This document shows, in pieces, positions 42,201 to 63,133 of a stretch of 64,000 nucleotides of DNA. Source of the stretch: an uncultured Bacilli bacterium (GTDB lineage Bacteria > Bacillota_I > Bacilli_A > RF39 > UBA660). The notes under the pieces are model-generated. The model saw nothing but the letters and a program-made list of their open reading frames with translations. It made no database searches and was not told the origin of the DNA. Made by a program: the position numbers and the translations under genes. The stretch's first letter is position 1; each line of letters opens with the position of its first letter. The stretch covers positions 55,117 to 119,116 of the forward strand of contig CAKOLB010000004.1 in NCBI GenBank assembly GCA_934096125.1, in the 5' to 3' direction.

Positions 42201-42247
42201 ATGAATGATAGAGCTTTAAAAAAGGTGGTTTTGGATGCCGGACATGG
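42201..42247 (+). pseudogene. split Amidase_3-LysM hydrolase gene, segment 1 of 3
   Basis: ATG 42201 encodes MNDRALKKVVLDAGHG. The frame then enters unrelated sequence and stops at TGA 42270-42272. Confidence 0.8.
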
Positions 42248-42269
42248 GAGATACTGTTATTCTACACAA
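42242..42269. repeat. attL of element 1 (core ACATGG plus P' arm TTATTCTACACAA)
   Basis: TTATTCTACACAA (42257-42269) is the exact inverted complement of TTGTGTAGAATAA at 50551-50563. Confidence 0.7.
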
Positions 42270-42317
42270 TGAATAGAAACTATCAGAACTAGTTGATTTA
42301 CATGAAAATTAAACTTT

Positions 42318-42345
42318 AAAGAGATATTTGAAAAAGTATCTCTTT
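42318..42345 (+). promoter_or_regulatory. perfect 9-bp inverted repeat upstream of mob (candidate oriT hairpin or insulating terminator)
   Basis: AAAGAGATA-N10-TATCTCTTT followed by TTGCATATT, 29 nt before the mob start. Confidence 0.3.
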
Positions 42346-42373
42346 TTGCATATTAAAAAAAAGGGGGAATTAT

Positions 42374-43633
42374 ATGAGTTATGCAATATTTAGAAGTCAA
42401 CCAATAAATACACTACAAGATTTAGCGCAAATTGGTTCACACAATAAAAGAGAAAAGAAAGCTTATAAGAGCAATCCAGATATAAAATTAGATAGAAGTA
42501 AGGATAATATAGAATTAGTAAAATGTGCTGAAAAATATGTTAAAAGATTTTACGAATTAACTAAAGACTATAAAAAAGAACATGAAGAAAGACAAAAGAC
42601 AATGCGAGAAGATAGAAAAAAATCCTATTATAAAATGCTTAATGATGCTAGAAATGTAGTAGCAGATGAATTGTTATTTACAAGTGATAGTTTATTCTTT
42701 AAAGATAAAAGTAAGAAAGAAATATTAAGGTGGGCTAATACTTGTATGGATTTTGTTTATAATGATTTAGGTTATACTAAAGAACAGGTATTACATTCTA
42801 CTATTCATATGGATGAAAAAACACCACACATTCATTGTGTAGTGATTCCACTAGTTAAAAAATTAGATAAAAGAACTAATACAGAAAGATATACTATCTC
42901 AAAAAAGCAATATATCAAAAATAACGAGCATTTAAGTGAATTACAAGATAAATACCATAATAGATTAGTTAAGGCTGGTTTTGATCTAGAAAGAGGTTTA
43001 AAAGGCAGTACAGCAGAGAATATAAATATAAAAGAATTTAAAAAAATGACTAGAAGGTTAGATAAGTCATTAGAGAAAAGTACACTATTATTAAATGATG
43101 ATTATAATGACTTAAAAGTTAAATTAAATAAAAGTAAACCTACAATAACTGGCAAGGAAGTTAAAATAGATAAAGATACTTATCAAACATTAAATAAATT
43201 TATGAGTACGGCTAAAAGAATAATAGAAGATATTCCTAAAACACAATCAATGGTAAAAACTTTAGATGAGTATACCAAAATCTTTAGAAGTACGCAAAGA
43301 GAGAATATTCAATTAAAGAAAGAAGTAAATAGACTTGAATTAGAAAAAGAAGAAATCAAACAAGAAAATAATAGACTAGAAAATCTTATGTATAATTTAC
43401 TTCAAAGATTAAAAGATTTATTTAAAAAAATTCTTCATATAGGTACTGATAAAGAAAAAGATAATGTATCAAAAGAAATAAAGTATCATTATGATAATAA
43501 TTATTATAACGATTTAGATTTATGCTATATTTCTAAGGGAACAACTAAAGAAAGAGATATATTTGAACACATTGGTTATATCAAAAAAGGGTATAACAAA
43601 GAAAAAGAAGAAGATTTTGATATAAATAGATAA
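42374..43633 (+). CDS. mob: MobV-family (Mob/Pre) relaxase
   Basis: N-terminal HNKR motif, HMDEKTPHIHCVVIP (HxDExxPHxH) motif, and a coiled-coil C-terminal half. Confidence 0.8.
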   Translation: MSYAIFRSQPINTLQDLAQIGSHNKREKKAYKSNPDIKLDRSKDNIELVKCAEKYVKRFYELTKDYKKEHEERQKTMREDRKKSYYKMLNDARNVVADELLFTSDSLFFKDKSKKEILRWANTCMDFVYNDLGYTKEQVLHSTIHMDEKTPHIHCVVIPLVKKLDKRTNTERYTISKKQYIKNNEHLSELQDKYHNRLVKAGFDLERGLKGSTAENINIKEFKKMTRRLDKSLEKSTLLLNDDYNDLKVKLNKSKPTITGKEVKIDKDTYQTLNKFMSTAKRIIEDIPKTQSMVKTLDEYTKIFRSTQRENIQLKKEVNRLELEKEEIKQENNRLENLMYNLLQRLKDLFKKILHIGTDKEKDNVSKEIKYHYDNNYYNDLDLCYISKGTTKERDIFEHIGYIKKGYNKEKEEDFDINR

Positions 43634-43699
43634 GTCAAAACAAAAACGGACTTTTTTCGTGGTATAATAAAGAAAAACTTGTTATTTTTGGAGGTAGTT

Positions 43700-45910
43700 A
43701 TGAACAAAGAAAATAAAATTATAAATTTTAAAAATGAAGATTCAAAGAAAAATATTTCTTTAGAATTAGATAAAAAAATGATTTTTATTTACGGTAAAAA
43801 TGGTAGTGGCAAAACAACTTTTTCTAGATCGAACGATTTGGATAAAAAATATGTATTTAATGAAGACTTCGTATATAAAAATGTTTATATAATAGACGCT
43901 GAAGGAGCAAAAATTGATTCAGGTGTTAAAAATAATTTTTCAGAGTTGCTTGTTGGAGAAGATGTTGTTCTATTAAAAGAAAAACAAAATAAATTAGAAG
44001 AAATATATAAAGAATTAAATACTAAAAGTAATGATAATGAAACATTTATCAATTCTAGTTTAGCAAGTAATGGTATTCCAAACAGTTATAATTTTTTAAA
44101 GGAAAAAGTTGATGAAACTTTTAATTATGATGAAACAAAAACAATCGAAGAACAAATGGAGATATATAAGAGCGATTTAGAATTGGAACAGACTATTACA
44201 AATGATAAAGAGTTAGAAATCAATGTGAATCAAATAAAGAAACATGAGAATATTAAATTATTAATAGAAAAAATAAAAAAAATACCATTGTTAGAGGAGT
44301 TTCTTTTTTCAGAGGATTATCCAATACTATTGAAACTTAATTCTGATTTAGACATTATTAATACAAATATTCAAAACATTAAAAGTTTAGAAGAGTTAGG
44401 GAAAAAGAAAAGGGTAGAAAAAAATGATTTTTCTATTATAAGAGATTGTATAACATTACAAGAAAAAGTGGGAACTGATATTTGTGTATTATGTGGTAAT
44501 ACTGAAATTAAAGCAGGTATAGAAGAATGGAAGAAAATATTTCAGGACAAAACAGTAAATTTAAAAACGAAAGTAATATCAGAATTAAATGATATTCTAA
44601 AAAATTGTAAAACTATTATTGATGATAGAAAAGTATATGAACCTGTTGCACCTGGTACTATTAACAATATAATAATATTTATAGGAATTATAGAAAACGC
44701 TTTAAAAGAAGTGAATTTAGGCAATGTTTTAGAAATTAAATATCAAGAAATCGTAAGAGAAAAATATACTGAAGACATTATTCAAAAGTATAAAACTATT
44801 GCAAATTACGTATTAAAGAAATATAAAGATAAAACTATTTTCTTAAATTCATCACTTAAAAGTGTAGGTGGTAAAATAAAAGTAATAAAAGAAAACATAG
44901 AAAAAATTTTAAAGCTAAATGCTGACACCCATAAAGAATCAATAAACTCTATTCTTAAAGATTTGGGATTAGATAAAGAAATAACCGTTGGTGTTGATAG
45001 ACTAGGCGGTAAAATAAAATATTCACTAAATGTAGTTAATAACAATTTATCAAAATTGAGTGATGGGCAAAAACATAAATTAGCTTTGGCAATATTTTTA
45101 AATACTATTAAAAATGAAGATTTAAAAGGTAAAACAGTTGTGTTTGACGACCCTGTTGTTGCGCTTGATGAACTAGGATATCACTTTTTTAAACAATATG
45201 TTATAAAAAATATAATGAATAATCCTAACATAGAAGAATGCCCTAATCTTATTATATTAACTCACAACTTTAATTATCTTTATATACAAACAAGTAATAT
45301 AATAATTAGTCCTAATTTACAAGACAATACAAAAATATTGAAATTAAATTCAGATGGATTTAAAGAATTAGATTTTGAATTGTTTAAATTAGATGATATC
45401 GCATTATTTAAAAAATGCTTAGATAATATTAAGTATGAAGATGAATTGATAGACTTAAGTAGTTTATACAATAAAGTTTTTAGAGAATTTTTGGATTTAA
45501 AACTAAGAATACTTGGAAATCCATTAAATGGTAATCCAGCAGAAGAAATAAAGATAATAGTATCTGATGAACAAACAAGAAAATTGTTGCAGGAACAAAG
45601 TAATAAGTTAAGTAGTTATTCAAAAAATAAAAATATAACAATAGAAGAATCGAAAGAAGGTTTTTGCTTATTATCAGATATGCTAAAGACAATAGGGTTT
45701 GATGAATATATTCTGCCTCAAAACATTGATTCAATTAAAAATATTGTAAAGAGGGAAGAAATAATTTATTCAGATATATTTTATATTATTCATGAAATAG
45801 CAAATATTTTAAGAAATGAAGATAATAAATATAAAAATTATATAAATTATTTAAATCATCCAAGAATATCATTTACTAAAAATATGATGTCAACATCTAT
45901 GGATGCATAG
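43700..45910 (+). CDS. AAA_13 / RloC-PrrC-like ABC-type ATPase with zinc-hook insert (putative anticodon nuclease)
   Basis: Walker A GKNGSGKTT and a long K/E-rich coiled insert with CVLC (CxxC). Signature LSDGQKHKLA, Walker B VVFDDPVVALDE, and H-loop LTHN. The ~200-aa C-terminal domain has FREFLD and YLNHPR. Start at ATG 43700 behind GGAGG. Confidence 0.55.
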   Translation: MNKENKIINFKNEDSKKNISLELDKKMIFIYGKNGSGKTTFSRSNDLDKKYVFNEDFVYKNVYIIDAEGAKIDSGVKNNFSELLVGEDVVLLKEKQNKLEEIYKELNTKSNDNETFINSSLASNGIPNSYNFLKEKVDETFNYDETKTIEEQMEIYKSDLELEQTITNDKELEINVNQIKKHENIKLLIEKIKKIPLLEEFLFSEDYPILLKLNSDLDIINTNIQNIKSLEELGKKKRVEKNDFSIIRDCITLQEKVGTDICVLCGNTEIKAGIEEWKKIFQDKTVNLKTKVISELNDILKNCKTIIDDRKVYEPVAPGTINNIIIFIGIIENALKEVNLGNVLEIKYQEIVREKYTEDIIQKYKTIANYVLKKYKDKTIFLNSSLKSVGGKIKVIKENIEKILKLNADTHKESINSILKDLGLDKEITVGVDRLGGKIKYSLNVVNNNLSKLSDGQKHKLALAIFLNTIKNEDLKGKTVVFDDPVVALDELGYHFFKQYVIKNIMNNPNIEECPNLIILTHNFNYLYIQTSNIIISPNLQDNTKILKLNSDGFKELDFELFKLDDIALFKKCLDNIKYEDELIDLSSLYNKVFREFLDLKLRILGNPLNGNPAEEIKIIVSDEQTRKLLQEQSNKLSSYSKNKNITIEESKEGFCLLSDMLKTIGFDEYILPQNIDSIKNIVKREEIIYSDIFYIIHEIANILRNEDNKYKNYINYLNHPRISFTKNMMSTSMDA

Positions 45911-46068
45911 TCTTTTTTGAAAAATGGATATATAAAGATACATTTTAGTAACACACTACGATATTGACAGAGCCAATAACGATGTGTGCCAAGGGGATTG
46001 TCCCTTTGGAAACCCTATTAGCTCTATCGCCACTTTCATTGCTAAAGCAACAAAACGTGCCACGAGCT

Positions 46069-46103
46069 AAAAAGACTGACAAAAATTAATTGTCAGTCTT
46101 TTC
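46069..46103. terminator. bidirectional hairpin terminator
   Basis: AAAGACTGACAA-N7-TTGTCAGTCTTT perfect 12-bp stem flanked by A and T runs. The stop of the minus-strand XRE gene lies in the loop. Confidence 0.65.
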
Positions 46104-46361
46104 TGATGGAATATCATCAAATAGTTGTCTGATGTCTATTCCTAAAGCATCAGCAAATTTACCTATGGTTTCTAATGTTGGAGTTTTATCAATGCTTAAG
46201 CATTCTAAATCTCGAACATATCCATGAGTCAGTTCAGTTAAATCAGCTAATTCTTGAAGTGTATAACCACGTATAAGTCTGTATTTTCGAATGTTTTTTC
46301 TAACTTGAATAGATAAAATTGTTTTTGAATATCTTCTCATAGAAGTTATACACCTCCTCAC
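46086..46361 (-). CDS. XRE-family HTH transcriptional regulator
   Basis: HTH region LIRGYTLQELADLTELTHGYVRDLE. 91 aa. Confidence 0.75.
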   Translation of the reverse strand: MRRCITSMRRYSKTILSIQVRKNIRKYRLIRGYTLQELADLTELTHGYVRDLECLSIDKTPTLETIGKFADALGIDIRQLFDDIPSEKTDN

Positions 46362-46448
46362 ATTTAAATTATTTCATAAAAATTTTAAAAAATATGTCGC
46401 CTGACAGAAGTTTTTGTGATATAATTAAAATGAAAGGAGACTGCTTTT

Positions 46449-46925
46449 ATGAAGAAATGCAAATATTGTCAAACTGAAATTGACTCAAAAGCAAAAATTT
46501 GCCCAAACTGTAAAAAGAAACAAGGTAAACCAAAATGGTTAATAGCTTTAATTGTTATTATTGTAATAATGATTATTGCATCTGTTGCTGGAGGTAACGA
46601 AGAGAATGCTAAGGAAGGAAATGTTTCAAACGGAGGTAATAAGCCAACAGAAAAATTTACTTATGAAGTAACAAAACAATATGCAGATGAATATGGTATG
46701 TCTTATTATATAGAAGGTAGTGTAAAAAATAATAAGGATAAAGATTATTCATATGTTCAAATTGAATTTGTTTGCTATGATGCAGAAGGCAATAACCTTG
46801 GAACTGCTATTGATAATACAAATAATTTACTAGGAAATCAGACTTGGAAATTTAAAGCAATGGCTATGTTTAGTGATGCTGAAACTGTTGATCATTGCGA
46901 TTATCATGAAATAACAAGCTGGTAA
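46449..46925 (+). CDS. zinc-ribbon / TM / FxLYD-like domain protein
   Basis: CKYC...CPNC ribbon, one TM, and an extracellular beta-rich domain with IEFVCYDAEGNNLG (FxLYD-like). Confidence 0.45.
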   Translation: MKKCKYCQTEIDSKAKICPNCKKKQGKPKWLIALIVIIVIMIIASVAGGNEENAKEGNVSNGGNKPTEKFTYEVTKQYADEYGMSYYIEGSVKNNKDKDYSYVQIEFVCYDAEGNNLGTAIDNTNNLLGNQTWKFKAMAMFSDAETVDHCDYHEITSW

Positions 46926-47035
46926 AATAGTTGGAAGTCTTTTTAAGACTTCTTTTTGTTAGATTTTTTTACCAAAATAGTCGTTTTATATTTGTTTTAT
47001 GTTATAATAATATTTAATGAAAAAAGGGTGGTTTT

Positions 47036-47335
47036 ATGTATCAATTATTGAGTTTATTCAGTTTTCTTATTAGGGCATATTTGTGTTATTGCACAATAGA
47101 TAATATTCCAATATTAGCTAATCCGATATTAAATAGTATTTTAGGGGAAGTAATATCCTTATATACTATTTTGTGGGCAATAAGTTATTTTGTTGTTGGA
47201 AGATTTTATGATAAAGGTTCTGAACCCTTGTTAGGTGTTATTTTATATTTTATTGTATATGTTGTAATTCTGGGAATTACATATTTATTGTTGTTATTAT
47301 TAACATATATTGGAGTTTTACCAATAGTTATATAA
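47036..47335 (+). CDS. small hypothetical membrane protein
   Basis: 99 aa with three hydrophobic segments. No family recognised. Confidence 0.4.
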   Translation: MYQLLSLFSFLIRAYLCYCTIDNIPILANPILNSILGEVISLYTILWAISYFVVGRFYDKGSEPLLGVILYFIVYVVILGITYLLLLLLTYIGVLPIVI

Positions 47336-47364
47336 ATAAAAAAACTTATCGTTGTGATAAGTTT

Positions 47365-47904
47365 TTATAGGTTTATTCTATCATCAGGTAATTTTGAGTA
47401 ATCATATTTTTCAGCACACATTTCTAAATCTTCGTAAATAGAGGTTAATTGTGCTAATATTTTTTCGGGTGGAAGTAATTCTTTATAATAATCATAATCT
47501 TTAAGTAAAAGCATCATTTGGAATATTCTTGTTCTGCAATCAGCAACTTTAGTTCTTTTCTCATAAGAATCTTCTAATAAATCCAATTGAGATTCTCTAT
47601 ATTGTTTTACTAATTCCTTTATATTTTTAGGAGTTTTATGTTTTGAAGTGTCTTTGAAACTATCTAGAATATCACTATAACCAGCAGTAGTTAAAAGAAA
47701 TTCTAAACTTATTTCTAATACTTCAGATAAACTTCTTAACATATCTATATCTGGTTTTTTAATATTACCTTTTTCAAGTTCATTATATGTAGAGTGATGT
47801 GTATTGATTAAACGAGCTACTTTTCTTTGAGAGTAGCCTTTTTTTGTTCTAGCAGTCCTTAATATTTTACTTAATTCTTCAAGATTAGCATTATTATTTT
47901 CCAT
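47365..47904 (-). CDS. XRE-family HTH regulator with C-terminal extension (element repressor candidate)
   Basis: HTH region KKGYSQRKVARLINTHHSTYNELEKGN. Divergent from the HTH_36-like ORF across an operator-bearing intergenic region. Confidence 0.7.
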   Translation of the reverse strand: MENNNANLEELSKILRTARTKKGYSQRKVARLINTHHSTYNELEKGNIKKPDIDMLRSLSEVLEISLEFLLTTAGYSDILDSFKDTSKHKTPKNIKELVKQYRESQLDLLEDSYEKRTKVADCRTRIFQMMLLLKDYDYYKELLPPEKILAQLTSIYEDLEMCAEKYDYSKLPDDRINL

Positions 47905-47971
47905 TTAAACCACCTCTAAAATGCTTTCTTCCAATAACATAATACCATAACGAAAATTAAAAAGCAATAAT

Positions 47972-48037
47972 TTTGTCGGTTATTCTTGACAAAATTATAA
48001 TTACAATGTATATTATAGTTGTCGGGCAATCTTGACA
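47972..48037. promoter_or_regulatory. two copies of a 20-bp operator-like site overlapping -35 elements
   Basis: TTGTCGGTTATTCTTGACAA (47972-47991) and TTGTCGGGCAATCTTGACAA (48018-48037). Each is a TTGTC...GACAA inverted repeat containing TTGACA. The first TTGACA has a 17-nt spacer to TATATT. Confidence 0.5.
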
Positions 48038-48134
48038 AAAAAGGGGGATAGTAATAAAGTAGATTGCTAATGCGACTAATGTTCTTTGAAAATTTACACA
48101 AGTCTTTAAAGGTTAATTAAAAGGGGGTGATAGC

Positions 48135-48638
48135 ATAACAGAATCTATAAAAGATGGGTTTTGGATTATACCTGCAAAAGTAGGTATAGATGATGCACTC
48201 ACATTACAAGATAAATTACTATATGCTCAAATCTTATCATTAACAAGACAAGATGGATTCTGTTTTGCTACTAATTCTTATCTATCTAATTTAAATAATG
48301 TTACTCCAAAAACAATTTCTAACAGTATTTCTAATCTTAAAAAAAATAATTATATACGAGTTGAATATCACAAGGAAAAAATAAATAAAGATAAAAGAAA
48401 AATATTTGTAACTGATAAGGGGGTATGGAAAACAAATCCTGGGGATATAGAAAAAAATGTTAATACCGGTATGGAAGATAATTTCCAATATAATAATATA
48501 AAGAATAAAAAGATAAAAAAATATAATACCAATAATAATGTTCCTTGGTGGCTAGATAAAGAAATTAAAGAAAATCCTGCATCTCTAGAAGAACAAGCAG
48601 AGATGGAAGCACTACTAAGCGAATTTAAAAAAGATTGA
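48135..48638 (+). CDS. HTH_36-type winged-helix protein (plasmid/ICE replication- or regulation-associated), no canonical start codon
   Basis: The frame is open from 48117 to TGA 48636-48638 and encodes ...WIIPAKVGIDDALTLQDKLLYAQILSLTRQDGFCFATNSYLSNLNNVTPKTISNSISNLKKNNYIRVEY. The strong SD AAGGGGG (48121-48127) lies 7 nt before ATA 48135. The first in-frame ATG/GTG/TTG is not until about 48470. Confidence 0.55.
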   Translation: MTESIKDGFWIIPAKVGIDDALTLQDKLLYAQILSLTRQDGFCFATNSYLSNLNNVTPKTISNSISNLKKNNYIRVEYHKEKINKDKRKIFVTDKGVWKTNPGDIEKNVNTGMEDNFQYNNIKNKKIKKYNTNNNVPWWLDKEIKENPASLEEQAEMEALLSEFKKD

Positions 48639-48714
48639 AAAGGAGTTGGTTTTATAAATAAATACAAGACTAAATCATAAAATTTAATAAAAAGGAAAAG
48701 GGGGAATTATAAGA

Positions 48715-48846
48715 ATGGAGGTAGTACTTAAGGCAAAACACACATTTAAAACTGATATATCAAACGAAGAATTATTTAGAGATAGATTTAACGAGATATT
48801 GTTAAAAGTTATATTGCATCTTGAGCAAAATTACCAAAGTAGTTAA
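48715..48846 (+). CDS. small ORF (43 aa) immediately upstream of recombinase 1
   Basis: ATG 48715 preceded by AAAAGGGGG. Encodes MEVVLKAKHTFKTDISNEELFRDRFNEILLKVILHLEQNYQSS. Too short to appear in the track. Confidence 0.35.
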   Translation: MEVVLKAKHTFKTDISNEELFRDRFNEILLKVILHLEQNYQSS

Positions 48847-48937
48847 AAAAATTATAAATAACTATCAAAAAGGGGTATAATATAAGTTGTAGTCGATTTA
48901 GTTCTGATAGTTATACACAGAATTGGAGGATATAACT

Positions 48938-50533
48938 ATGAGACTAAGAGTTGGTATTTATGGGAGGTTATCACAAGAGGATATAGATAAGATAAACAAA
49001 GAAGATGAAAGTGAAAGTATCCAAAATCAAAAAAGAATGTTATTAGAGTATGCTTTAAAAAATGATTGGGATGTAGTTGATATTTATATTGATGAAGATT
49101 ATTCAGGTGCTGGAGTTTATAGACCAGAGTTTGAGAGAATGCTAAAAGATTGTGAAAATGGAAAACTAGATATAGTTTTATGTAAGAGTCAATCAAGATT
49201 CTCGAGAGATATGGAAATAATTGAAAGATATATAAATAACAAATTTAAAGAATGGAATGTTAGATTTATTAGTTTAGTAGATAATATAGATACTGATAAT
49301 AAATCTAATAAGAAATCTATTCAAATATTAGGACTAACTAATGAATGGTATTTAGAAGATTTATCAGATAACATTAAAAGAACAATTAGGAATAAAAAAG
49401 AGTCTGGACAATTTACTGGTTCATTTGCTCCCTATGGTTATTTAAGAAGTGAAGAAGATAAACACAAATTAGTTATTGATCCTATTGCTTCAATCATTGT
49501 TAAAAAGATATTTGAAATGTATAAACAAGGTAATGGTTATACTAAAATAGCAACTTATTTGAATGATACTAATGTTCCTAGTCCTTATGAACACAAAAAA
49601 GCAAGTGGTAGTAAATTTGTATGTGGAAATGTTGGAAAGGAAAAATCATATTGGTATTCAGATACAATTGCTAAAATCTTAAAAGATGAAGTATATATTG
49701 GAAATCTAGTACAAGGAAAAACAAGGCATATAAGTTATAAAAATAAAAAATCAGTTCCTGTTCCTAAAGAAGATTGGATAATTGTTAAAAACACACACGA
49801 ACCTATAATAGATGAAGATACTTGGAATATAGTTTCTGCTAAATTTAAAGGTAGGACAAAGCCAAGTAAATCTGGGGAAATTCATATGTTTACTAAAAAG
49901 GTTTATTGTGATTGTTGCAAAAAAATATTTTATAATGGTTATTCTAAATCAGGAAATGGGAACAAGCATTATTATTTAACTTGTAAGTCTAGAAAATCAG
50001 GGGTGTTTTGTGAAAATAATCTATCTATTAGAGTAGATAAATTAAAAGACTTTATCCTTAATGAGATTAATGAATATATCAAAGTTTATCATAATTCTAA
50101 AGCTTTAAATGAGAAATACCAAAAATTAAATACTAAGAATAATAAAAATGAGATTCAAGAACAAATTAAAACTTTGGAAAAACAACAAACTGAATTAGAA
50201 AAATCACAAAGTAAAAAGAATTCTTATTTAAGAAAATTATATGAAGATAGAATAGAGGGTTTCATTACTGATGAGCAATACAAAGCTTTTAGTAAAGACT
50301 ATGATGATGAATTAAATGAATTGCAAAACAGAATTCAATTAATAAAAGATGAAATCACTCTCTTAAATCAAAGGCACAGTGATATGATTGATAGAGATAA
50401 AATATTTAATAAATATAAATCTATAAAGGAATTAGATAGAAGTATATTAGATGATTTTATAGAAAAAATATATATCGGTGCAGTAGATAAAGAAACGAAT
50501 GAACGAGAAATAAATATTGTATGGGCCATATAA
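48938..50533 (+). CDS. large serine recombinase (resolvase domain, recombinase domain, zinc ribbon, coiled coil)
   Basis: VGIYGRLSQED catalytic-Ser motif, SIQNQ, YIDEDYSG, and SRFSRD. Cys cluster CDCC...C...C. C-terminal coiled coil with FIEKIYIG...REINIVW (DUF4368-like). Start at ATG 48938 behind GGAGG. Confidence 0.9.
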   Translation: MRLRVGIYGRLSQEDIDKINKEDESESIQNQKRMLLEYALKNDWDVVDIYIDEDYSGAGVYRPEFERMLKDCENGKLDIVLCKSQSRFSRDMEIIERYINNKFKEWNVRFISLVDNIDTDNKSNKKSIQILGLTNEWYLEDLSDNIKRTIRNKKESGQFTGSFAPYGYLRSEEDKHKLVIDPIASIIVKKIFEMYKQGNGYTKIATYLNDTNVPSPYEHKKASGSKFVCGNVGKEKSYWYSDTIAKILKDEVYIGNLVQGKTRHISYKNKKSVPVPKEDWIIVKNTHEPIIDEDTWNIVSAKFKGRTKPSKSGEIHMFTKKVYCDCCKKIFYNGYSKSGNGNKHYYLTCKSRKSGVFCENNLSIRVDKLKDFILNEINEYIKVYHNSKALNEKYQKLNTKNNKNEIQEQIKTLEKQQTELEKSQSKKNSYLRKLYEDRIEGFITDEQYKAFSKDYDDELNELQNRIQLIKDEITLLNQRHSDMIDRDKIFNKYKSIKELDRSILDDFIEKIYIGAVDKETNEREINIVWAI

Positions 50534-50550
50534 TTTAGTCCATACAGGAC

Positions 50551-54636: not shown

Positions 54637-55875
54637 ATGCAAAAAACAGTAGTAGAATTATTTGCCGGTGTTGGTGGATTTAGATGTGGATTAAATAATG
54701 TAAAATTAAAAGATAATAAAGTTATTGAAAAAGGTAATTGGAATTTTGTGTGGGCGAATCAATGGGAACCTTCTACTAAAACACAAGAGGCTTTTGAATG
54801 CTATTCAAAAAGATTTGGAAAGGATGATGTTAGTAATGTAGATATATTTCAAGTAAATAAAAAAGAGATACCTAATCATACTTTATTAGTTGGTGGTTTT
54901 CCATGTCAAGATTATTCTGTTGCACAGACACTATCTAATAGCAAAGGAATTGATGGAAAAAAAGGTGTTTTGTGGTGGGCAATTGCAGATATATTAAAAG
55001 TTAAGAAACCTCCATTTGTGTTTTTAGAAAATGTTGATCGCTTACTTCTTTCGCCAGCGAGTCAAAGAGGCAGAGATTTTGGAATAATTTTGAGAAGTTT
55101 TTATGAAAATGGATATGATTTAGAATGGCGAGTTATCAATGCGGGAGAATATGGATTTCAACAAAAACGTAGGAGAATTTATATAATTGCATATCACAAA
55201 TCAACTAAATATTGTAAGAAAATGAGAAAAATTGATAAGAAAAATATATTACTTAAGGAAGGTATTTTCATAAAACAGTTTCCTGTAAAAGAGAAAGAGT
55301 TTAACTCAAATGTATCAAGTATTTCAGAATATAAAGATTTAGTCGATGTTAGTGATAATTTTAAAAACCAATTTTATAATTCTGGAGTTATGATAAATGG
55401 TGAAATATATACTGCCAAATTAGAACATAATTGCGATAGTGTATATCAGTTAGGCAATTTAATAGAAACTAATAAGGTTGATGAAAAATATTTCCTTTCA
55501 AAAGATAGAATTGAGAAATTTAGAATATTAAAGGGAAGTAAAAGAATACCTAGAAAAAAGCCAAATGGAGATGATTACATTTATTCTGAAGGTTCAATGC
55601 CATTTCCTGATAATCTAAATGTTCCTGCTAGAACAATGCTGACTTCAGAAAGTGGAACTAGCAGAATGACACATGTTATAGAGGACTATAGAACTAAAAA
55701 ATTAAGATTTTTAACACCATTAGAGTGTGAAAGAATTAATGGATTTCCAGATAATTGGACAAATACTGGGATGAGTGATAAGAAACGATATTTCATGATG
55801 GGTAACGCTTTAGTAGTAAATGTTGTTGAAAAAATAGGGATTGAATTGGAAAAAATAGTAGAAATGGAAGAGTAA
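54637..55875 (+). CDS. DNA (cytosine-5)-methyltransferase, Sau3AI-type (GATC specificity inferred)
   Basis: Motif I ELFAGVGGF, motif IV GGFPCQDYS, motif VI LENVDRLL, motif VIII QQKRRRIYIIA, and motif X GNALVV. WANQWEPS and SPASQRGRDF resemble M.Sau3AI-like enzymes. Confidence 0.85.
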   Translation: MQKTVVELFAGVGGFRCGLNNVKLKDNKVIEKGNWNFVWANQWEPSTKTQEAFECYSKRFGKDDVSNVDIFQVNKKEIPNHTLLVGGFPCQDYSVAQTLSNSKGIDGKKGVLWWAIADILKVKKPPFVFLENVDRLLLSPASQRGRDFGIILRSFYENGYDLEWRVINAGEYGFQQKRRRIYIIAYHKSTKYCKKMRKIDKKNILLKEGIFIKQFPVKEKEFNSNVSSISEYKDLVDVSDNFKNQFYNSGVMINGEIYTAKLEHNCDSVYQLGNLIETNKVDEKYFLSKDRIEKFRILKGSKRIPRKKPNGDDYIYSEGSMPFPDNLNVPARTMLTSESGTSRMTHVIEDYRTKKLRFLTPLECERINGFPDNWTNTGMSDKKRYFMMGNALVVNVVEKIGIELEKIVEMEE

Positions 55876-55984
55876 ATGAAAAAATGTTAAAATTTGGTAA
55901 TTTATCTAAATAGTGTTATAATTTTATACAGAAGATATGCAGTATTTGTCTTTTTAAGATGGATACTGCATTTTTTTGAAGTAG

Positions 55985-56950
55985 GTGGTAGTATTGGATT
56001 CACTTAATTATGAAGTTTTTAAAAAAATAAAGAAATATTATAATGATAATTGCAAACCTTTAATTTTTGTTGGAGAAAAATTATTATCGCAGAATAACAA
56101 ATGTAAAATGTATTTTTGTGATGTTGATTTAAATCAAGAAAAAGAAAATTATAGAAAAGTTTTTCAAGAATATTTGGCACTTTATGTTAGAAATCATGAT
56201 TTGCTAAAATATTATGATAAGATTATAAAAAGTGAAACAGAAGATGAAATTTCAGAAGCTTTAATTTATTATGGAAATGATTTGTGGAATAATACCGTAT
56301 TGATAACTACAACTACACCAGAGACTTTAGGGATATATGGAGAAGCCATTAATGATTTTTATTTAAATATTGTTAAGAATGAAAATATAATTATCACTTA
56401 TTCAGCAAAAAGGGGGTATGGTGAACGTAATATAAAAGGGGTAGATGTAGTTGCATGTACTTGGAAAAAAGATAATCTTGTACTAATATTTTCTGAGTGT
56501 AAATTTGTCGAATCAATATATAAGGCGTCGTGTGGTTTATATAATGATATAAAGGGAACTCAATATGAATTGGCACATATAAGTAAAGATTATATAAACG
56601 GATATTCTACTTATATTGTTGATAATGCTCATTCAATTTTTGCAGAGAGTAATAATTCAGATAAAATTATAGATGTTTTGGACAAATTGAATAGTAGGAT
56701 AATAAATGGAAACAAGGCGATAGATGTGTTTAATGAATTAAACATAAAAATTCAATTTAATTTCTTTGCAATTTACTGTGATAATAAATTTACACCAGAT
56801 GAAAGACAAATAATGTTTGAAAAAGTATATAATGCTTTTTATGAAAATGTAAAATTAACAGGTATTAAAAATTATGATATGGAAATTGTGTATATACCTA
56901 TTAAAAATACAAGCTCTGTGGTAAAGGAATGTATGAGACAATGGAATTGA
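55985..56950 (+). CDS. HamA-like (DUF1837-type) PD-(D/E)xK nuclease candidate, first gene of a Hachiman-like pair
   Basis: 321 aa, with GVDVVACTWKKDNLVLIFSECKF giving a D...E-x-K arrangement. Overlaps the downstream helicase gene by 22 nt. Confidence 0.5.
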   Translation: MVVLDSLNYEVFKKIKKYYNDNCKPLIFVGEKLLSQNNKCKMYFCDVDLNQEKENYRKVFQEYLALYVRNHDLLKYYDKIIKSETEDEISEALIYYGNDLWNNTVLITTTTPETLGIYGEAINDFYLNIVKNENIIITYSAKRGYGERNIKGVDVVACTWKKDNLVLIFSECKFVESIYKASCGLYNDIKGTQYELAHISKDYINGYSTYIVDNAHSIFAESNNSDKIIDVLDKLNSRIINGNKAIDVFNELNIKIQFNFFAIYCDNKFTPDERQIMFEKVYNAFYENVKLTGIKNYDMEIVYIPIKNTSSVVKECMRQWN

Positions 56951-59322
56951 CACGAAATACAATTGTAAAGAAAATAAATTTATTTTCAATGGAAAGGAAT
57001 AATAAAGAATTAATAAATCTACTATGTGATATTTTAGAAAGTAAAAATTACATGGATAATTATGATCTTATTTTAATTATAATAAATATTGCCGAACTTT
57101 ATGGTTATCAAGAATTTTTTAATAATTTTGATGCAAATAGTATACCTAAATATAACGTGCATGCAATATCTAATGATATTAGAAAAAATCTATATAAAAG
57201 CAAAAAAGGTAATAATATATATTATAATTCTGGACAATTATCTTTATTAAAAGAATTATCACTATATGATAAGCTTTTTATATCAGCTCCCACGTCATTT
57301 GGTAAAACCAGTTTAGTTTTAGAGCATATAGCAATGAATAACTCAATATATAAAACTATTATTTTTTTAGCTCCAACTAATGCATTAGTAGAAGAATTGT
57401 ATCTAAAATTTTTAAAATTAAATAAAGAATGTAATTTAAATTATGATGTAATAACAATGCCAAAAAATAAAAATAATAATACAATATGGATATTAACACC
57501 AGAGAAATTTTTACTTTTGGTTGAAGAAAAAAGTATAGATTTTGATTTGATAGTTATGGATGAGGCTTATAAAATTGAAAATGAAGAATCAATTGATAGA
57601 AAAGATATTTTAAATTCTAGGTCAAGCAAATATAGGAAAGTAATGGAATATATGGCTAATTCTAATTCGAAGATTATATTTTTATCTCCATATACTTATA
57701 ATAAGGCGCCATCTATGACAAGATTCTTAAAAAAATATAGTATCAAGGATATTGACAGGAATATTAATTATGTAAAAAAAGACATAATAGATATTTATGA
57801 TAGCAAAAGTTATAAAAGTAATTTTTCCAATAGTATATTTAGTATTAAAAAAGGTGATTCTGGGATTAAAAAAGCAATGGCAGCTGTTCCCTATTTATCT
57901 GATAATACAATTATATATGTAAAATATCCAAGTGAGGCAATAAAAGTTTTAGAATTAATGCCTAATGAAAAAGCAAGTATAGATAATGAAAGATTTAAAA
58001 AATTTTTGAACCATTTAAAAGAAAATTATTTATTTGAAGACAGCAATTGGTATATTATAGATGCTCTAGAAAAGGGAATTGGCATATATGTATCACCTAT
58101 TCCTCGATATATAAAAAAAGAAATAATATATTTATTTAATAAGGGAATAATAAAAAAACTTATAGTTACAACTGCATTTGCTGAAGGAGTTAATAGTTCA
58201 GCTAAGAACATAATTATAACAAATAGAATAACAGGATCTAATAAAAAACTAACTAATTTGGATATATTGAATTTAAGTGGTAGAGCAGGCAGATTTGGTG
58301 TATATAGCAAAGGAAAAGTTTTTTCTGCAGTTGAAGAAGTAAGTGATATTTTAAGAAAATCATCTGAAAATGGAGTAATTATAAATAATCCTAATTACGA
58401 ATTAGCAAGTGATATTATACCTAGAACTGATTATGAAATCGATATGATAGATGATTATCTATTAAATGAAGAAGAAAAAAATATAAAGGAAACCACAAAA
58501 AAAAGGCAATTAAATTTTAATTTGACCAACGATGATTTAAATATAGCTTTATCAATTGCAAATGAAATAAAAATCGATGTATATTCATATTTTTTTGAAA
58601 CAATTAACAATGGAAAAATTCAAGATATAAGATTTAATAATATTAAAAATTTATTGTCTACAGAGAAAAATGATATTATAAAATCAATTACATTTATTTT
58701 TAACGAATTAAAAAATGCAGATATTCCAATAGTTTCAGATTTTGGTGATATTAATCCATTTAATAGTAAAGGTGATTTTATTTGGGGCATTTTTTACGGA
58801 ATCCACTCTTCAGGAAATATTAGAGATGTTTTGAAATCAAGAAAAGGCTTTATTTTAAAACAGTTAAGTGAAATTGAAAAAATATTAAATTTAAAACTTA
58901 AAAATTTTAATAATAAAGAAATAGAAAAAATATTACGTGAGTACGATAAAAAATGGATATACGATTATTTAACTAAAGGTGAAATTGATGATGCAAAACT
59001 ATATAATGGTGCATTTAAATTTATATCAAACATAATTGAATATAGAATACCATTTTATATTGGATTGTATATATCAGTTTTTAAAATGTTTTGTAGAAAG
59101 AATAATTTAAATTATGATTTTAATTTTGATATTGTTGAAATATCTACATCATTAGAAAATAAAAATATAGAAAAAAAGTATTCTGATATGTTGGAATTTG
59201 GCATACCATTAGATACAATCAAAAAGATAAATAAATTTAAAAATGATAATAATATTTTTGAAATATTAGATGATTATGAAAAAATTATGTTAAGTGAATA
59301 TAATTACTATTTTGATAAATAA
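56929..59322 (+). CDS. HamB-like SF2 (Ski2/Hel308-like) helicase
   Basis: Motif I SAPTSFGKTS, Ia LAPTNALVEE, II VMDEAYK, V TTAFAEGVN, and VI LSGRAGRFG. 797 aa with a long C-terminal domain. Confidence 0.6.
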   Translation: MYETMELTRNTIVKKINLFSMERNNKELINLLCDILESKNYMDNYDLILIIINIAELYGYQEFFNNFDANSIPKYNVHAISNDIRKNLYKSKKGNNIYYNSGQLSLLKELSLYDKLFISAPTSFGKTSLVLEHIAMNNSIYKTIIFLAPTNALVEELYLKFLKLNKECNLNYDVITMPKNKNNNTIWILTPEKFLLLVEEKSIDFDLIVMDEAYKIENEESIDRKDILNSRSSKYRKVMEYMANSNSKIIFLSPYTYNKAPSMTRFLKKYSIKDIDRNINYVKKDIIDIYDSKSYKSNFSNSIFSIKKGDSGIKKAMAAVPYLSDNTIIYVKYPSEAIKVLELMPNEKASIDNERFKKFLNHLKENYLFEDSNWYIIDALEKGIGIYVSPIPRYIKKEIIYLFNKGIIKKLIVTTAFAEGVNSSAKNIIITNRITGSNKKLTNLDILNLSGRAGRFGVYSKGKVFSAVEEVSDILRKSSENGVIINNPNYELASDIIPRTDYEIDMIDDYLLNEEEKNIKETTKKRQLNFNLTNDDLNIALSIANEIKIDVYSYFFETINNGKIQDIRFNNIKNLLSTEKNDIIKSITFIFNELKNADIPIVSDFGDINPFNSKGDFIWGIFYGIHSSGNIRDVLKSRKGFILKQLSEIEKILNLKLKNFNNKEIEKILREYDKKWIYDYLTKGEIDDAKLYNGAFKFISNIIEYRIPFYIGLYISVFKMFCRKNNLNYDFNFDIVEISTSLENKNIEKKYSDMLEFGIPLDTIKKINKFKNDNNIFEILDDYEKIMLSEYNYYFDK

Positions 59323-59333
59323 AATCATGTCCG

Positions 59334-59362
59334 TTGACTGTCCTATAAATTTATGGTAAAAT
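59334..59362 (+). promoter_or_regulatory. near-consensus sigma-A promoter in the hamB-to-59637 intergenic region
   Basis: TTGACT (59334-59339), 17-nt spacer ending in TGG, then TAAAAT (59357-59362). Confidence 0.5.
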
Positions 59363-59636
59363 GGTAATATAGGATAAGTGTAAGAGATGCAAATTTATGA
59401 GAGGATTTTCCCTCTTTTTTTGTGTCTTTAAAAAAAATTATCTTTTTGAAAGAAAGGTAAATTTTATCTAAAATATTCTAAACTGTCGGAGACTATTAGT
59501 GGGTTTTAGGGATATTCCCTAACAAGCTAGATGGGTGTGTATACACCATGCTTGATATATTATATTACACGGGTATGTAACCTCAAAATAGGATTTAATG
59601 GTAATCTGAAATGTGGTATGAAATGAAAGGAGAAAT

Positions 59637-60209
59637 ATGGAATTTAAGTCAATGGAGAAGTGGCGTGTTTTACAGAAGTTTAAAATTAGCGAAAAACAGT
59701 ATAAGAGATTAGTGAAAAGATTAAAAAGAAGACATCCTAATGAAAGATGGATTGATGAACATTTTGCTCAAAATGGTGAAAGAGTAGTATATCTAAAATT
59801 AGAATTTGTAGAATGGATAGAAGAAGTTTATTTAAATAACAATCTATTTTATTTAGATGCTGAAATTGTTTTCTTTAAAAAGCAAATATTAAGACTAGAA
59901 GATGAATTAAATTTTCCTCATAGTGGGTTTGAATATGAAGATATATCTTTAAAAGATTTAAGGGAGTATTTTAATAAGAGTAAAGATGTGATAGGTGTTG
60001 CAATAAATAGAATGGAAAAGAGAAATGATAAATCATTCAAGTATATAAAAGATGCTAAAGTTATGATTAATAAAGAAGGCGTTAAATGGTTAAGTGAAAA
60101 CTATTTCCGTAAAGATTATTTAAAAAAGTTAGAATTTTATAAATTAGAACTTCAAAATGTTAAGAGAAAAAGAAATAGATTAAAAGAATATAGTATTTTC
60201 TATTACTAA
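59637..60209 (+). CDS. hypothetical basic protein (190 aa), element-encoded
   Basis: GGAG RBS before the ATG. K/R-rich N-terminus (KQYKRLVKRLKRRHPNERW) and a K/R-rich C-terminal tail. No family recognised. Confidence 0.5.
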   Translation: MEFKSMEKWRVLQKFKISEKQYKRLVKRLKRRHPNERWIDEHFAQNGERVVYLKLEFVEWIEEVYLNNNLFYLDAEIVFFKKQILRLEDELNFPHSGFEYEDISLKDLREYFNKSKDVIGVAINRMEKRNDKSFKYIKDAKVMINKEGVKWLSENYFRKDYLKKLEFYKLELQNVKRKRNRLKEYSIFYY

Positions 60210-60312
60210 CTAGATTAGTTTGGAATATAACTAATTTTTTTATGTCCTAATTTTGATAATAAAGTCTTATAGTTGTTCTTATTTCATAAAATGAAAGGAG
60301 AGGTGTAGATTA

Positions 60313-60405
60313 GTGAATATAACTGAAACTTTCGATAAAGATAAAAACTTGGTTGAATTAATAGAGGAGTATTTAAAATTGATGTTAGAAAATAGTAAGC
60401 AATAA
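60313..60405 (+). CDS. small ORF (30 aa) immediately upstream of recombinase 2
   Basis: GTG 60313 lies 10 nt after GGAGAGG. Encodes VNITETFDKDKNLVELIEEYLKLMLENSKQ. Same position relative to the recombinase as ORF 48715. Confidence 0.3.
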   Translation: MNITETFDKDKNLVELIEEYLKLMLENSKQ

Positions 60406-60463
60406 GAGTTTGTGATATAATGATATTGCTTATTGAAGTTATACACGTTGGAAGGAGTAGTAA

Positions 60464-62089
60464 GTGTATAACAATGTAATACAAGCACCAAGTTTTTATA
60501 GAGTAGGTATATATATCAGATTATCAGAAAGTGATGAAGATAAAACTTATGAGTCAGAGAGTGAAAGTATAATCAATCAAAGAAATTTATTAATGGATTA
60601 TGTAAAAATGAGTGGATTTACTTTGGTTGATGAGTATGTAGATGATGGATTTACAGGAACTAACTTTGATAGGCCTTCTTTTCAAAGATTATTAAAAGAT
60701 ATTGAAAGTGGTCGAATCAATTGTGTAATCACAAAAGACTTATCAAGATTAGGTAGAGATTATATTCAATGTGGATATTATGTAGAACAATATTTTCCAC
60801 AAAAGAAAATTAGATATATTTCTATACTAGATCAAGTTGATACATTTCTAGAAAGTGCTAATAATGACATTGCTCCATTTAAAGCTTTGTTTAATGATAT
60901 GACTAGTAAGGATACTTCTAAGAAGATTCGTTCAATATTAAAAAATAAAAAAGAACAGGGTAAATTTATTGGAAGCAAACCATGTTATGGATATATGAGA
61001 GATCCACTTGATAAAGGACATTTAATACCCAATCCAGAAGTTGCTCCTGTTGTTAAAAGGATATTTAAAATGGCTCATTCTGGAACTGGAGTAAGTGATA
61101 TAGTATCATACTTAAATGATAATAAGATATTAAGCCCTAGTATGTATAAAAATACTAAATCATCTTCAAGACAAAAAGTGAATGTATGGACAATATCCTC
61201 AGTCAACAAATTACTAAAAAATAGAATGTATACAGGAGATATGGTACAAAATGTTCAAACTAAGTTAAGTTATAAATCTCAGAAGAAAGTTGCTTTAGAA
61301 AAAGAGTTTTGGATAATAGTTGAAAATACTCATGAACCTCTTGTTAGTAAAACAGTATTTGAAGCAATACAAAATGCTCCTGCTAGAGTAAGGACAACCC
61401 ATTGTAATAGAGAAAAAAGATTATTAGAAAATCTTCTTGTTTGCAAAGAATGTGGAAACTCTTTAAGCGTTCTTTATAGAAAAAATAAAAATTATAAGGG
61501 TGGAAAGTATTGGAGTGTTAATTGCAATAAATATGCAAGAGATCCAAGAAGACATTTGTGCTATCCACACTTCTTTCCTTATGATAAACTAGAAGAAAAA
61601 ATAATGAGTGTTATTAAAACTACTTGTCAAAAATATTTAGATAGTTTAAATATCAAAGAATTATCTGAAAGAGTATTACAAGATAGAGCAAAGGAAAAGA
61701 ATGATAGGCAAAAGGAAAAGCAACAATTATTAAATGAGATTGATGAATTAAAAAGAAAATCTGATGCTTTATATGATGACAAATTTAATGGAATAATAAG
61801 TGTTGATACTTATACAAGAATCTCTGCACAAACTGAAAAACAAATATCAGCCTTAAATTATAGAATTTATGAAATAGATAATGAAGAAAATCAGATTAAA
61901 GAAGATACAAAAGAAATAACTAAATATGAAGAACAAATAAAATCACTTTTAAATTTAGATGAACCCAACAGAGAACTCATAAAAACTTTAGTAAAAAAAA
62001 TTTATATAGATAAAGATAGAAATATAGAAATTCAATATAGATTTAAGGTGCTAGATGATATAAAAACTAATTATGAAGAAATAAATTAA
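60464..62089 (+). CDS. large serine recombinase (second, distinct copy)
   Basis: VGIYIRLSESDED catalytic-Ser motif, SIINQ, YVDDGFTG, and LSRLGRD. Zinc ribbon CKECG...C...C. C-terminal coiled coil with LVKKIYID...IEIQYRF. Confidence 0.9.
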   Translation: MYNNVIQAPSFYRVGIYIRLSESDEDKTYESESESIINQRNLLMDYVKMSGFTLVDEYVDDGFTGTNFDRPSFQRLLKDIESGRINCVITKDLSRLGRDYIQCGYYVEQYFPQKKIRYISILDQVDTFLESANNDIAPFKALFNDMTSKDTSKKIRSILKNKKEQGKFIGSKPCYGYMRDPLDKGHLIPNPEVAPVVKRIFKMAHSGTGVSDIVSYLNDNKILSPSMYKNTKSSSRQKVNVWTISSVNKLLKNRMYTGDMVQNVQTKLSYKSQKKVALEKEFWIIVENTHEPLVSKTVFEAIQNAPARVRTTHCNREKRLLENLLVCKECGNSLSVLYRKNKNYKGGKYWSVNCNKYARDPRRHLCYPHFFPYDKLEEKIMSVIKTTCQKYLDSLNIKELSERVLQDRAKEKNDRQKEKQQLLNEIDELKRKSDALYDDKFNGIISVDTYTRISAQTEKQISALNYRIYEIDNEENQIKEDTKEITKYEEQIKSLLNLDEPNRELIKTLVKKIYIDKDRNIEIQYRFKVLDDIKTNYEEIN

Positions 62090-62195
62090 ATAATAAAAAT
62101 AGGGTGGTAAAATTTGGTAATCACACAATCTTACCATCCCCTATACTATTTTTAGAAAAAATAAAAACGCAGTAAAATCAAGAAAAATGATAGCC

Positions 62196-62218
62196 TAATC
62201 ACATAAAATCTTTCCGGA
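62196..62218. repeat. attR of element 2 (P arm TAATCACATA plus core GGA)
   Basis: TAATCACATA at 62196-62205 and GGA at 62216-62218. About 107-129 nt after the recombinase stop. Confidence 0.6.
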
Positions 62219-63133
62219 GGTGGCGATGGTGCAGAAGTAATATATGCTCTTAGAAATAATGATGTATTTGCAAGTAAAATTGCAAGAGAACTAGAGAGTG
62301 CAGGACAAAATATTAGAAAATATTATCAGAGAAGACTTCCAAGTAATCCAGCGAAAGATTATTATTATATAATGCGAGATACTCCTAATAATGAAACTGT
62401 AATTGTAGAGTATGGGTTTGCAGATTCTACTGGTGATGATGTTGAGCAGTTAAAAAATACTTGGGAAAACTTAGCAGAAGCGGTGGTTAAAGCAATTACT
62501 GAGTATGCTGGCGGTACTTATACACTTCCAAATACGGGCAATTATTACATAGTTAAAAGTGGTGATAGTCTATGGAGCATATCCAAAAAAACAGATGTTT
62601 CTATTGCCAAGATTAAGGAACTTAATAATCTTAAGAGTAATTTGTTAAGTATTGGTCAGAAATTAACATTACCACAAACAAGTGAAGATACCCCATCGCT
62701 AGATACATATATTGTTCAAAAAGGCGATAGTTTATATAAAATCGCTAACAAGTTTAATACTACTGTTGATAACTTAAAACTTATTAACAATCTTCAAAGC
62801 AATAATTTAGCTATAGGTCAAAAATTAAAGGTAAGTAGTAGTGAAAACAAATACACAGTGCAAAAAGGTGATACACTATACAGCATTGCCACTAAATTTT
62901 CTGTTAGTGTAGATTCATTAAAAAACGCTAATAATTTAGTTAGTAACACAATTGCCGTTGGTCAATCCTTAATTATCCCAGAACAAAAAACAACTAAAAC
63001 TTATACGGTTCAAAAAGGCGATAATCTTTATAGCATAGCAAGGCGATATAATACGACTGTAAATACAATAATGTCTTTAAATAATCTAGCTTCAACTAAT
63101 TTAACTATCGGTCAAAAGCTACTTGTTCCGTAA
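62219..63133 (+). pseudogene. split Amidase_3-LysM hydrolase gene, segment 3 of 3 (end of the Amidase_3 domain plus four LysM repeats)
   Basis: The frame of ORF 62372..63133 is open upstream to 62216 and reads GGGDGAEVIYALRNNDVFASKIARELESAGQ...YYYIMRDT...VEYGFADS. Four Y-x-V-x-x-GD-(S/T/N)-L-(Y/W)-x-I-(A/S) LysM units follow. Confidence 0.8.
62543..63130 (+). repeat. four tandem LysM domain-coding repeats
   Basis: YYIVKSGDSLWSISKK..., TYIVQKGDSLYKIANK..., KYTVQKGDTLYSIATK..., TYTVQKGDNLYSIARR..., each ending in IGQKL or VGQSL. Confidence 0.85.

Follow-up and report, generated by a model that had tools for sequence, protein, structure and literature searches.

A predicted sporulation-type amidase gene is split by two serine-recombinase elements whose precise excision may restore it

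Results

An amidase gene in three in-frame pieces

We analysed 64,000 nucleotides (nt) of contig CAKOLB010000004.1 (assembly GCA_934096125.1, forward-strand positions 55,117 to 119,116; hereafter the window) from an uncultured Bacilli bacterium (RF39, UBA660). The window contains an amidase gene in three in-frame pieces, with two independent serine-recombinase elements between them (Table 1). A preliminary description of the window had recognised the pieces as one Amidase_3-LysM gene, joining positions 42201-42247, 50581-50806 and 62219-63133 into a stop-free open reading frame (ORF) of 1,188 nt and 395 amino acids (aa). The single gene is borne out by colinear intact orthologues, and the single stop-free ORF stands as well; its size does not, as joining at the GG crossover located below gives 1,185 nt and 394 aa. 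Residues 9-185 of the rebuilt protein match the Amidase_3 profile over its full length (positions 1-173 of 174), and four LysM repeats are present.

To place the pieces we surveyed 80 species-level genome loci of relatives, 531 relatives being detected in total (labels of the form L0xx denote these loci; P0xxx denotes proteins or contigs from protein-database matches). Uninterrupted orthologues of about 399 aa, for which a search with the spliced product had been proposed, are abundant: thousands of proteins at 76-82% identity span the query end to end, and in most of the 80 loci the N-terminal 192 residues fall in one colinear match, with identity of up to 86%. The orthologue alignment is unbroken at both junctions, and the 394-aa join contains no indel relative to it. 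Solved Amidase_3 structures (5j72, 4rn7) can also be aligned through both junctions, with His15, Glu29, His86 and Glu155 on conserved residues of these structures. Precise in silico excision thus restores an orthologue-like ORF, and other interrupted alleles rebuild in the same way. The four residues, which we take to be the zinc-binding and catalytic residues of the family, are distributed over the three pieces (His15, Glu29/His86 and Glu155); if they are indeed the zinc/catalytic set, a single piece could not be active on its own.

The junction of the first element is marked by the hexamer ACATGG, identical at both ends as the preliminary description had it. The symmetry of the element's own attachment site, attP1, peaks at CA inside this hexamer (20/30 arm matches), so the crossover dinucleotide is probably CA (42243-42244). 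At the second junction the proposed core, GGA, had to be abandoned together with the 395-aa product. All orthologues read NAGGGDG, where a GGA-core splice adds a fourth Gly; in the same species, each of three other elements inserted here ends ...GG/TGGCGATGG, with GCAGGTGG/ preceding the element in one attL (the slash marks the junction); and the reconstructed attP2 has inverted-repeat symmetry centred on GG. We therefore place the crossover at GG, which sets the end of segment 2, the start of segment 3 and the length of the product. Of the two block lengths given previously, 8,333 bp is unchanged and 11,412 bp becomes 11,415 bp, and the blocks are indeed close together, about 225 rather than 226 bp apart. 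Each block ends, as had been noted, with its own large serine recombinase reading toward its right junction, and the domain matches agree with this assignment. The two recombinases are only 33% identical, and outside their genes the elements have no DNA in common, such as an origin of transfer (oriT). Both elements are poorer in GC (25.4-25.6%) than their flanks (29.8%). No tRNA gene that could have served as a target was found in 40000-64000.

Mis-assembly, or pieces that derive from different genes such as that of a prophage endolysin, would be a trivial explanation of this arrangement, considered because the source is metagenomic; nothing was found in its favour. The same junctions occur in independent assemblies from several studies, and on this ground we reject an assembly chimera. 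The pieces are colinear with single orthologues at 76-86% identity, the synteny downstream of the amidase (CmpB-like and CwlJ-like genes) is conserved, and neither element contains phage structural genes. An endolysin is rejected on the strength of the conserved chromosomal synteny and promoter together with the lack of phage genes. We give an artefact of either kind next to no chance.

The amidase has features of a late mother-cell enzyme

A sigmaK/sigmaE-type -10 element lies just upstream of the amidase start codon. Among the 66 orthologues with an extractable upstream region, CATAnnnTA is found 23-31 nt before the ATG in every one (66/66), as compared with 8% of 549 background genes, and 54/66 have the longer motif AC-N16/17-CATAnnnTA (4.2% in the background). 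The same -10 serves sigmaE and sigmaK, and AC at the -35 position marks sigmaK (PMC3789822). No sigma-70-type promoter was called in the region upstream of the amidase gene. This late mother-cell type of promoter is shared with CwlC and CwlH of Bacillus subtilis, sigmaK/GerE-controlled amidases that lyse the mother cell (PMC517825), and two amidases belong to the sigmaK regulon of Clostridioides difficile (PMC3789822).

The amidase has no signal peptide; its catalytic domain begins at residue 9 and the four LysM repeats are C-terminal. CwlC is built from an N-terminal Amidase_3 domain, without signal peptide, and C-terminal wall-binding repeats. The host enzyme has this layout, with the Amidase_3 domain at the extreme N terminus, but with LysM rather than SPOR-type repeats, and any orthology to CwlC is putative. 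Among NCBIfam amidase models the split protein matches CwlD best, below the cut-off, and a separate CwlD-like gene is present in the window. In 54/80 loci (for example, L081 9523-9945) the amidase has a linked 140-aa gene of the CwlJ/SleB family (Hydrolase_2), which here lies just past the right end of the window. The CATAnnnTA -10 also precedes this CwlJ-like gene in 40/45 distinct upstream regions, which suggests that the two genes make up a small locus of mother-cell hydrolases.

Proteins encoded by the host include Spo0A, YabG, YabP, YabQ and CwlD-like, SpoVB-like and SpoVT-like ones. Of the sporulation genes previously listed for the window (spoVT, yabG, yabP, yabQ, gerQ and cwlD), we recovered YabG, YabP, YabQ, CwlD-like and SpoVT-like products, and found no GerQ gene in the window. 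On the basis of the promoter motif, the lack of a signal peptide, the linkage to the CwlJ-like gene and the sporulation genes of the host, the amidase is most likely a late mother-cell sporulation enzyme of the CwlC-like, lysis type.

Three sites in the gene serve as a landing pad across the clade

Insertions were found in 17/80 species-level relatives, several of them doubly interrupted, and they fall at a minimum of three target sites in the amidase: the codons for GHGG (site 1), for NAGGGDG (site 2) and for the LysM motif GD(S/T)L (site 3). Site 1 is occupied in 15/80 related species, where the amidase match starts exactly at the site-1 codons. In 10/15 of these loci a recombinase 47-52% identical to recombinase 1 ends just upstream, and in 6/15 the 5' fragment (M..KKVV.D.GH) was located 8.6-9.6 kb further upstream. 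Site 2, at about 87% identity, was also seen occupied in other species (P0225, P0230, P0249, P0269). Site 3 is occupied in 5/80 loci, within LysM2 in L012 and L071 and within LysM1 in L065, L067 and L069, and about 32 or more protein-database fragments of 209-220 aa end at the LysM site in the same manner. The site-3 recombinases are about 39% identical to recombinase 2, and after GD(S/T)(L/I) the frame runs on into the conserved left end of the site-3 elements as F(M/L)xNN(E/K/V) (L012 10790-17000; P0160, P0172, P0174, P0189, P0208). One recombinase family thus appears to use repeated attB copies, in LysM1 and LysM2, within one gene.

Double interruption is also found in L065, L067, L069 and the P0161 contig. 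Two elements in one copy of the amidase are therefore recurrent in the clade, and the earlier impression that such stacking was without precedent does not hold within it. The suggestion that the gene is a hot spot, a landing pad for defence islands, is by contrast strongly supported: two sites and a third are reused across species, and at least four site-2 elements carry different defence cargo.

A mobilisable element and a defence island

Element 1 (Table 1) has the make-up of a Tn4451-like integrative mobilisable element. Its backbone (Mob_Pre, the minus-strand HTH_3 gene, HTH_36, the small ORF and the recombinase) is kept at site 1 in L040, L045, L046, L053, L062, L065, L067 and L081, and its ORFs include no type IV secretion genes. 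The HTH_36-like gene lacks an ATG, GTG or TTG start, with ATA 7 nt after its strong ribosome-binding site AAAGGGGG; homologues in related elements start with ATG, so that ATA could be a rare start here or the start codon could have mutated. Element 2 is a recombinase-borne island without a relaxase. The Sau3AI-like endonuclease and the cytosine methyltransferase genes stand side by side and divergent, the layout of a type II restriction-modification system. The HamA-like and HamB genes overlap by 22 nt and form a Hachiman pair, in which the HamA score is weak. Anti-phage cargo had been attributed to both elements. For element 2 this is solid, and for element 1 it comes down to the AAA_13 ATPase, a candidate defence gene with a PDC-S06 match.

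Table 1. Coordinates of the split amidase gene, the two inserted elements and the sporulation genes of the window.
Feature	Position	Strand	Description
YabG	5209-5985		Pfam 1e-88
YabP, YabQ	6217-6803
SpoVB-like	10890-12515	-
CwlD-like	27157-27807
sigmaK/sigmaE-type -10	42178..42186	+	CATATAATA, 14 nt upstream of amidase start codon
Amidase segment 1	42201..42247	+	Codons 1-15 plus 2 nt (MNDRALKKVVLDAGHG); carries GHGG His15
attL1 core ACATGG	42242..42247	.	Identical hexamer at attR1, 50575-50580
Element 1	42248..50580	+	8,333 bp, GC 25.4%
Candidate oriT hairpin	42318..42345	+	12-nt inverted repeat, 4-nt loop; predicted from its position between attL1 and the Mob_Pre gene
Mob_Pre (MobV) relaxase	42374..43633	+	419 aa; Pfam PF01076, 8.4e-28
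AAA_13 ATPase	43679..45910	+	743 aa; Pfam AAA_13 1.3e-13; PADLOC PDC-S06 1.2e-11
HTH_3 repressor-like protein	47365..47904	-	179 aa; conserved in related elements
HTH_36-like gene	48135..48638	+	167 aa; non-canonical start (see text)
sigmaE/K-like -10	48676-48683	+	CATAAAAT
Small ORF of element 1	48715..48846	+	43 aa; conserved, directly upstream of recombinase 1
Large serine recombinase 1	48939..50533	+	Resolvase, Recombinase, Zn_ribbon_recom, DUF4368 (5.8e-08); reads toward attR1
Amidase segment 2	50581..50805	+	Residues 16-91; carries Glu29, His86
attL2 crossover GG	50804..50805	.	attR2 copy at 62219-62220
Element 2	50806..62220	+	11,415 bp, GC 25.6%
Metallophosphoesterase	50920-51840	+	Profile match
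BglII-like nuclease	51903-52550	+	Profile match
HTH_36 protein	52563-52895	+	Profile match
Sau3AI-like (MutH-domain) type II restriction endonuclease	53070..54467	-	Pfam MutH 2.6e-30; PADLOC REase_II 3.3e-105
C5 cytosine DNA methyltransferase	54637..55875	+	Pfam 2.2e-65; PADLOC MTase_II 9.4e-166
HamA-like gene	55985-56950	+	PADLOC HamA 2.3e-4 (weak); second weak precomputed HamA match
HamB helicase	56929-59322	+	PADLOC 8.9e-71
sigmaE/K-like -10	60285-60292	+	CATAAAAT
Small ORF of element 2	60313..60405	+	30 aa; upstream of recombinase 2
Large serine recombinase 2	60464..62089	+	Resolvase, Recombinase, Zn_ribbon_recom, no DUF4368; reads toward attR2
Amidase segment 3	62221..63133	+	Residues 92-394; carries Glu155 and four LysM repeats

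The interrupted allele is inherited and the elements are moving

Using the gene for a downstream membrane protein as a handle, we gathered further genomic contexts of this species. Site 2 is interrupted in all 10 contexts shown, by three or more types of element: that of the window, a 5.5-kb element with type IIG restriction-modification, and one with type I restriction-modification. A fourth variant was seen in the species as a fusion protein, which brings the element types at site 2 to at least four overall. There are 77 contigs on record with the 253-aa 3' fragment that results from interruption at site 2. A collection of 15 billion proteins does not contain the exact 394-aa protein that restoration would give, and a short query across both junctions gave no intact match above 85% identity in protein databases. 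The interrupted allele is the form that the population of this species carries. At least one strain type (P0182) has no element at site 1.

Element 2 is shared with a second host, where 5,757 nt (positions 1-5760 of L092-L094, L097 and L098) are 99.93% identical to positions 56464-62220 of the window. In that host the amidase 3' DNA is only about 66% identical and the flanking genes are different (VanY, GH31). The end of one site-1 element is almost identical in five rabbit-gut species, the amidase genes of which differ at many synonymous positions. These comparisons show that the elements are horizontally mobile now, with very recent transfer between species. Element 2 nevertheless lacks a relaxase, despite its near-identical copy in the second host.

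The same data bear on whether one or both elements have lost the ability to excise, leaving the amidase as a pseudogene on its way to loss in this species. The non-canonical start of the HTH_36-like gene in element 1, the missing AC at the -35 position in this species and the failure to find an intact allele of it would fit such an explanation. However, neither recombinase ORF is truncated or lacks a domain, both pairs of att sites are intact and symmetric, and all three amidase fragments are free of stops. The near identity of element 2 in another host implies a very recent move, and the empty site 1 of some strains and the several element types at site 2 imply ongoing turnover. Within the species, segment 3 has accumulated synonymous and non-synonymous changes in numbers of 3/0, 4/0 and 7/4 (dN/dS about 0.16 or lower), which also argues, if weakly, against decay. 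Dead insertions are, in our judgement, quite improbable.

Discussion

Excision as a means of restoring the gene

The reading we favour, at a probability of roughly 0.6, is that two site-specific elements park in a sporulation-type amidase gene and that their precise excision may restore it. The amidase would be silent in growing cells, and the stretches coding for its most conserved motifs would be well suited as attB sites and common to many relatives; several large-serine-recombinase families would have become specialised on the three sites. At this locus two independent integrations have taken place, one of a Tn4451-like element at the GHGG codons and one of a restriction-modification and Hachiman island at the NAGGGDG codons. 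Integration separates His15, Glu29/His86 and Glu155, and because these putative zinc and catalytic residues then lie on separate pieces, the gene would be off in the inherited chromosome. Since crossovers by serine recombinases are scarless, exact excision of both elements would rebuild the 394-aa ORF.

The anatomy, att sites, orthology, hot-spot behaviour, mobility and promoter motif are documented above. Beyond these, we consider it slightly more probable than not that excision restores the gene and keeps it under selection; the terminal mother cell would be the likeliest setting, as for skin, SPbeta, gin and yin. All fully reconstructable interrupted alleles (8/8) are free of stops and frameshifts, and experimentally studied recombinase elements in mother-cell genes all excise during sporulation (PMC4191935, PMC5595907, PMC5025042, PMC10747680).

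These two observations also count against a tolerated knock-out, in which selfish or defence islands would inactivate a dispensable amidase, as a safe harbour, and would excise at a low constitutive level for transfer, with no developmental switch. Against it, too, are the conservation of the gene and its promoter motif in all 66 orthologues, the detection of 531 relatives, and the lack of decay even in a species where occupancy is seemingly fixed. The knock-out nevertheless fits several features that weigh against the reading we favour. The recombinase genes share a conserved TATAAT (sigmaA-like) -10, and in the three site families no sigmaE/K-type motif upstream of the recombinases or the small ORFs proved to be conserved. 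Element 1 carries a relaxase and resembles a common selfish mobilisable element, and spread between species has been very recent. Disruption of dispensable genes has been reported for mobilisable elements with serine recombinases, and that of Tn4451 reportedly needs no directionality factor for excision and integration (PMC5704250). The lack of an intact allele in this species points the same way. Weighing both sides, we consider the tolerated knock-out unlikely, if clearly worth keeping in mind.

Restoration by excision faces further difficulties. In this genome and species the -35 position of the amidase reads TC, not AC, and the uncultured host, in which sigK was not located, is a putative spore former. 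Two excisions are needed in one cell. The insertions may be young, in which case intact fragments and a low dN/dS could date from before them and would not have to reflect later selection. Searches for an excision product (attB or attP) gave none, in data that had almost no power; in particular, the attP2 junction was not seen among JGI metagenome contigs and IMG/VR, a search without power in which a control for the host flank of junction 2 recovered only one contig of the species, itself interrupted by the fourth element.

A possible point of control is the small ORF (30-65 aa) directly upstream of every large serine recombinase examined (the two in Table 1, L012 15028-15225 and L040 8129-8284). 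These ORFs are recognisably conserved at sites 1 and 3 (for example, MEV.YNV.YKFK...KLL.VIL.LE / MVKYKVNLKFKENGKSLNETITNVLKIELEKK). Those at site 2 occupy the same position, from which homology to the site-1 and site-3 ORFs is presumed. The small ORFs may encode a directionality factor or regulator. Both small ORFs of the window are preceded by the sigmaE/K-like -10 motif CATAAAAT, which occurs only six times on the plus strand in 42100-62300; it is not conserved in related elements, and we regard it as a weak lead.

Comparison with other intervening elements

The preliminary description had compared the locus to intervening elements of the skin and SPbeta type. At the level of architecture the comparison is supported, and the clade-wide sigmaK-type motif strengthens it. 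As with skin, in sigK of B. subtilis and C. difficile, and SPbeta, in spsM, large-serine-recombinase elements lie inside a coding sequence, here that of a predicted late mother-cell gene, with the recombinase at one end, next to an att site, which is the case for both elements here; scarless excision would rebuild the ORF, and the interrupted allele is the inherited form. In contrast to these systems, the target is a peptidoglycan amidase rather than a sigma factor or polysaccharide gene, the elements are not prophage-like, and two independent ones sit in one gene. Here the timing of excision would be a prediction, and the small ORFs are candidates for a directionality factor.

Closer in content is gin in gerE of Bacillus cereus ATCC 10987, a non-prophage element with restriction-modification and serine recombinases in a small sigmaK-stage gene, and yin in yabG of Clostridium botulinum shows heterogeneous excision (PMC5595907 and PMC10747680, respectively). 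Those, however, are single elements at a single site, whereas here three sites are used over the clade, two are filled at once, Hachiman is among the cargo and a relaxase is encoded by one of the elements. In the literature searched, the known targets of intervening elements in spore formers are sigK, spsM, spoVFB, spoVR, gerE and yabG, each with a single element and none an amidase, and we found no report there of multiple elements in one spore-former gene. Several recombinase-bearing elements in one gene or operon needed only in a terminal cell are, on the other hand, known from the nif/hup elements of cyanobacterial heterocysts (for example, Calothrix NIES-4101), where multiple excisions are required (PMC4874684, PMC11249958). 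The phylum, cell type and target are different, and heterocyst excision has been shown experimentally.

A more far-reaching version of the reading we favour is a double lock, in which a sigmaK-stage amidase would be rebuilt only after both islands excise in the terminal mother cell, and in which the clade would offer the gene as a germline-neutral parking place for the exchange of defence islands between species. We hold this tentatively, at a little short of even odds. If excision is timed to sporulation, the locus would be a two-key developmental switch, with defence islands exploiting the disposable genome of the mother cell. Even if excision is not so timed, the gene has brought to light three natural families of large serine recombinases that are site-specific and have clearly delimited attB/attP pairs. 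What is new in either case is a cell-wall amidase as a target class of intervening elements, in a host group of abundant, uncultured human and animal gut Bacilli; one gene that offers recombinases three independent sites and often holds two elements at once; and near-universal occupancy within a species combined with rapid swapping of anti-phage cargo. The documented, very recent transfer between species is useful both for mobile-element ecology and for recombinase tools.

Kinship of element 1

Element 1 shares with Tn4451/Tn4453 a TnpX-like recombinase with DUF4368, a MobV/Mob_Pre relaxase and a size of 8.3 kb; a 2-bp crossover would fit its shared core, and it is likewise not self-conjugative. 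Tn4451 has low target specificity and GA crossovers, whereas element 1 and its kin insert at a single exact site of one gene in 15 or more species, with a CA centre, and element 1 has no antibiotic-resistance cargo. By these sequence comparisons it is a distinct, site-specific lineage that would work like a Tn4451-type element. A 99-aa protein of element 1 (47036-47335) has a 61% identical homologue in the site-3 element of L069 (10713-10904), and cargo is therefore common to elements with different att sites.

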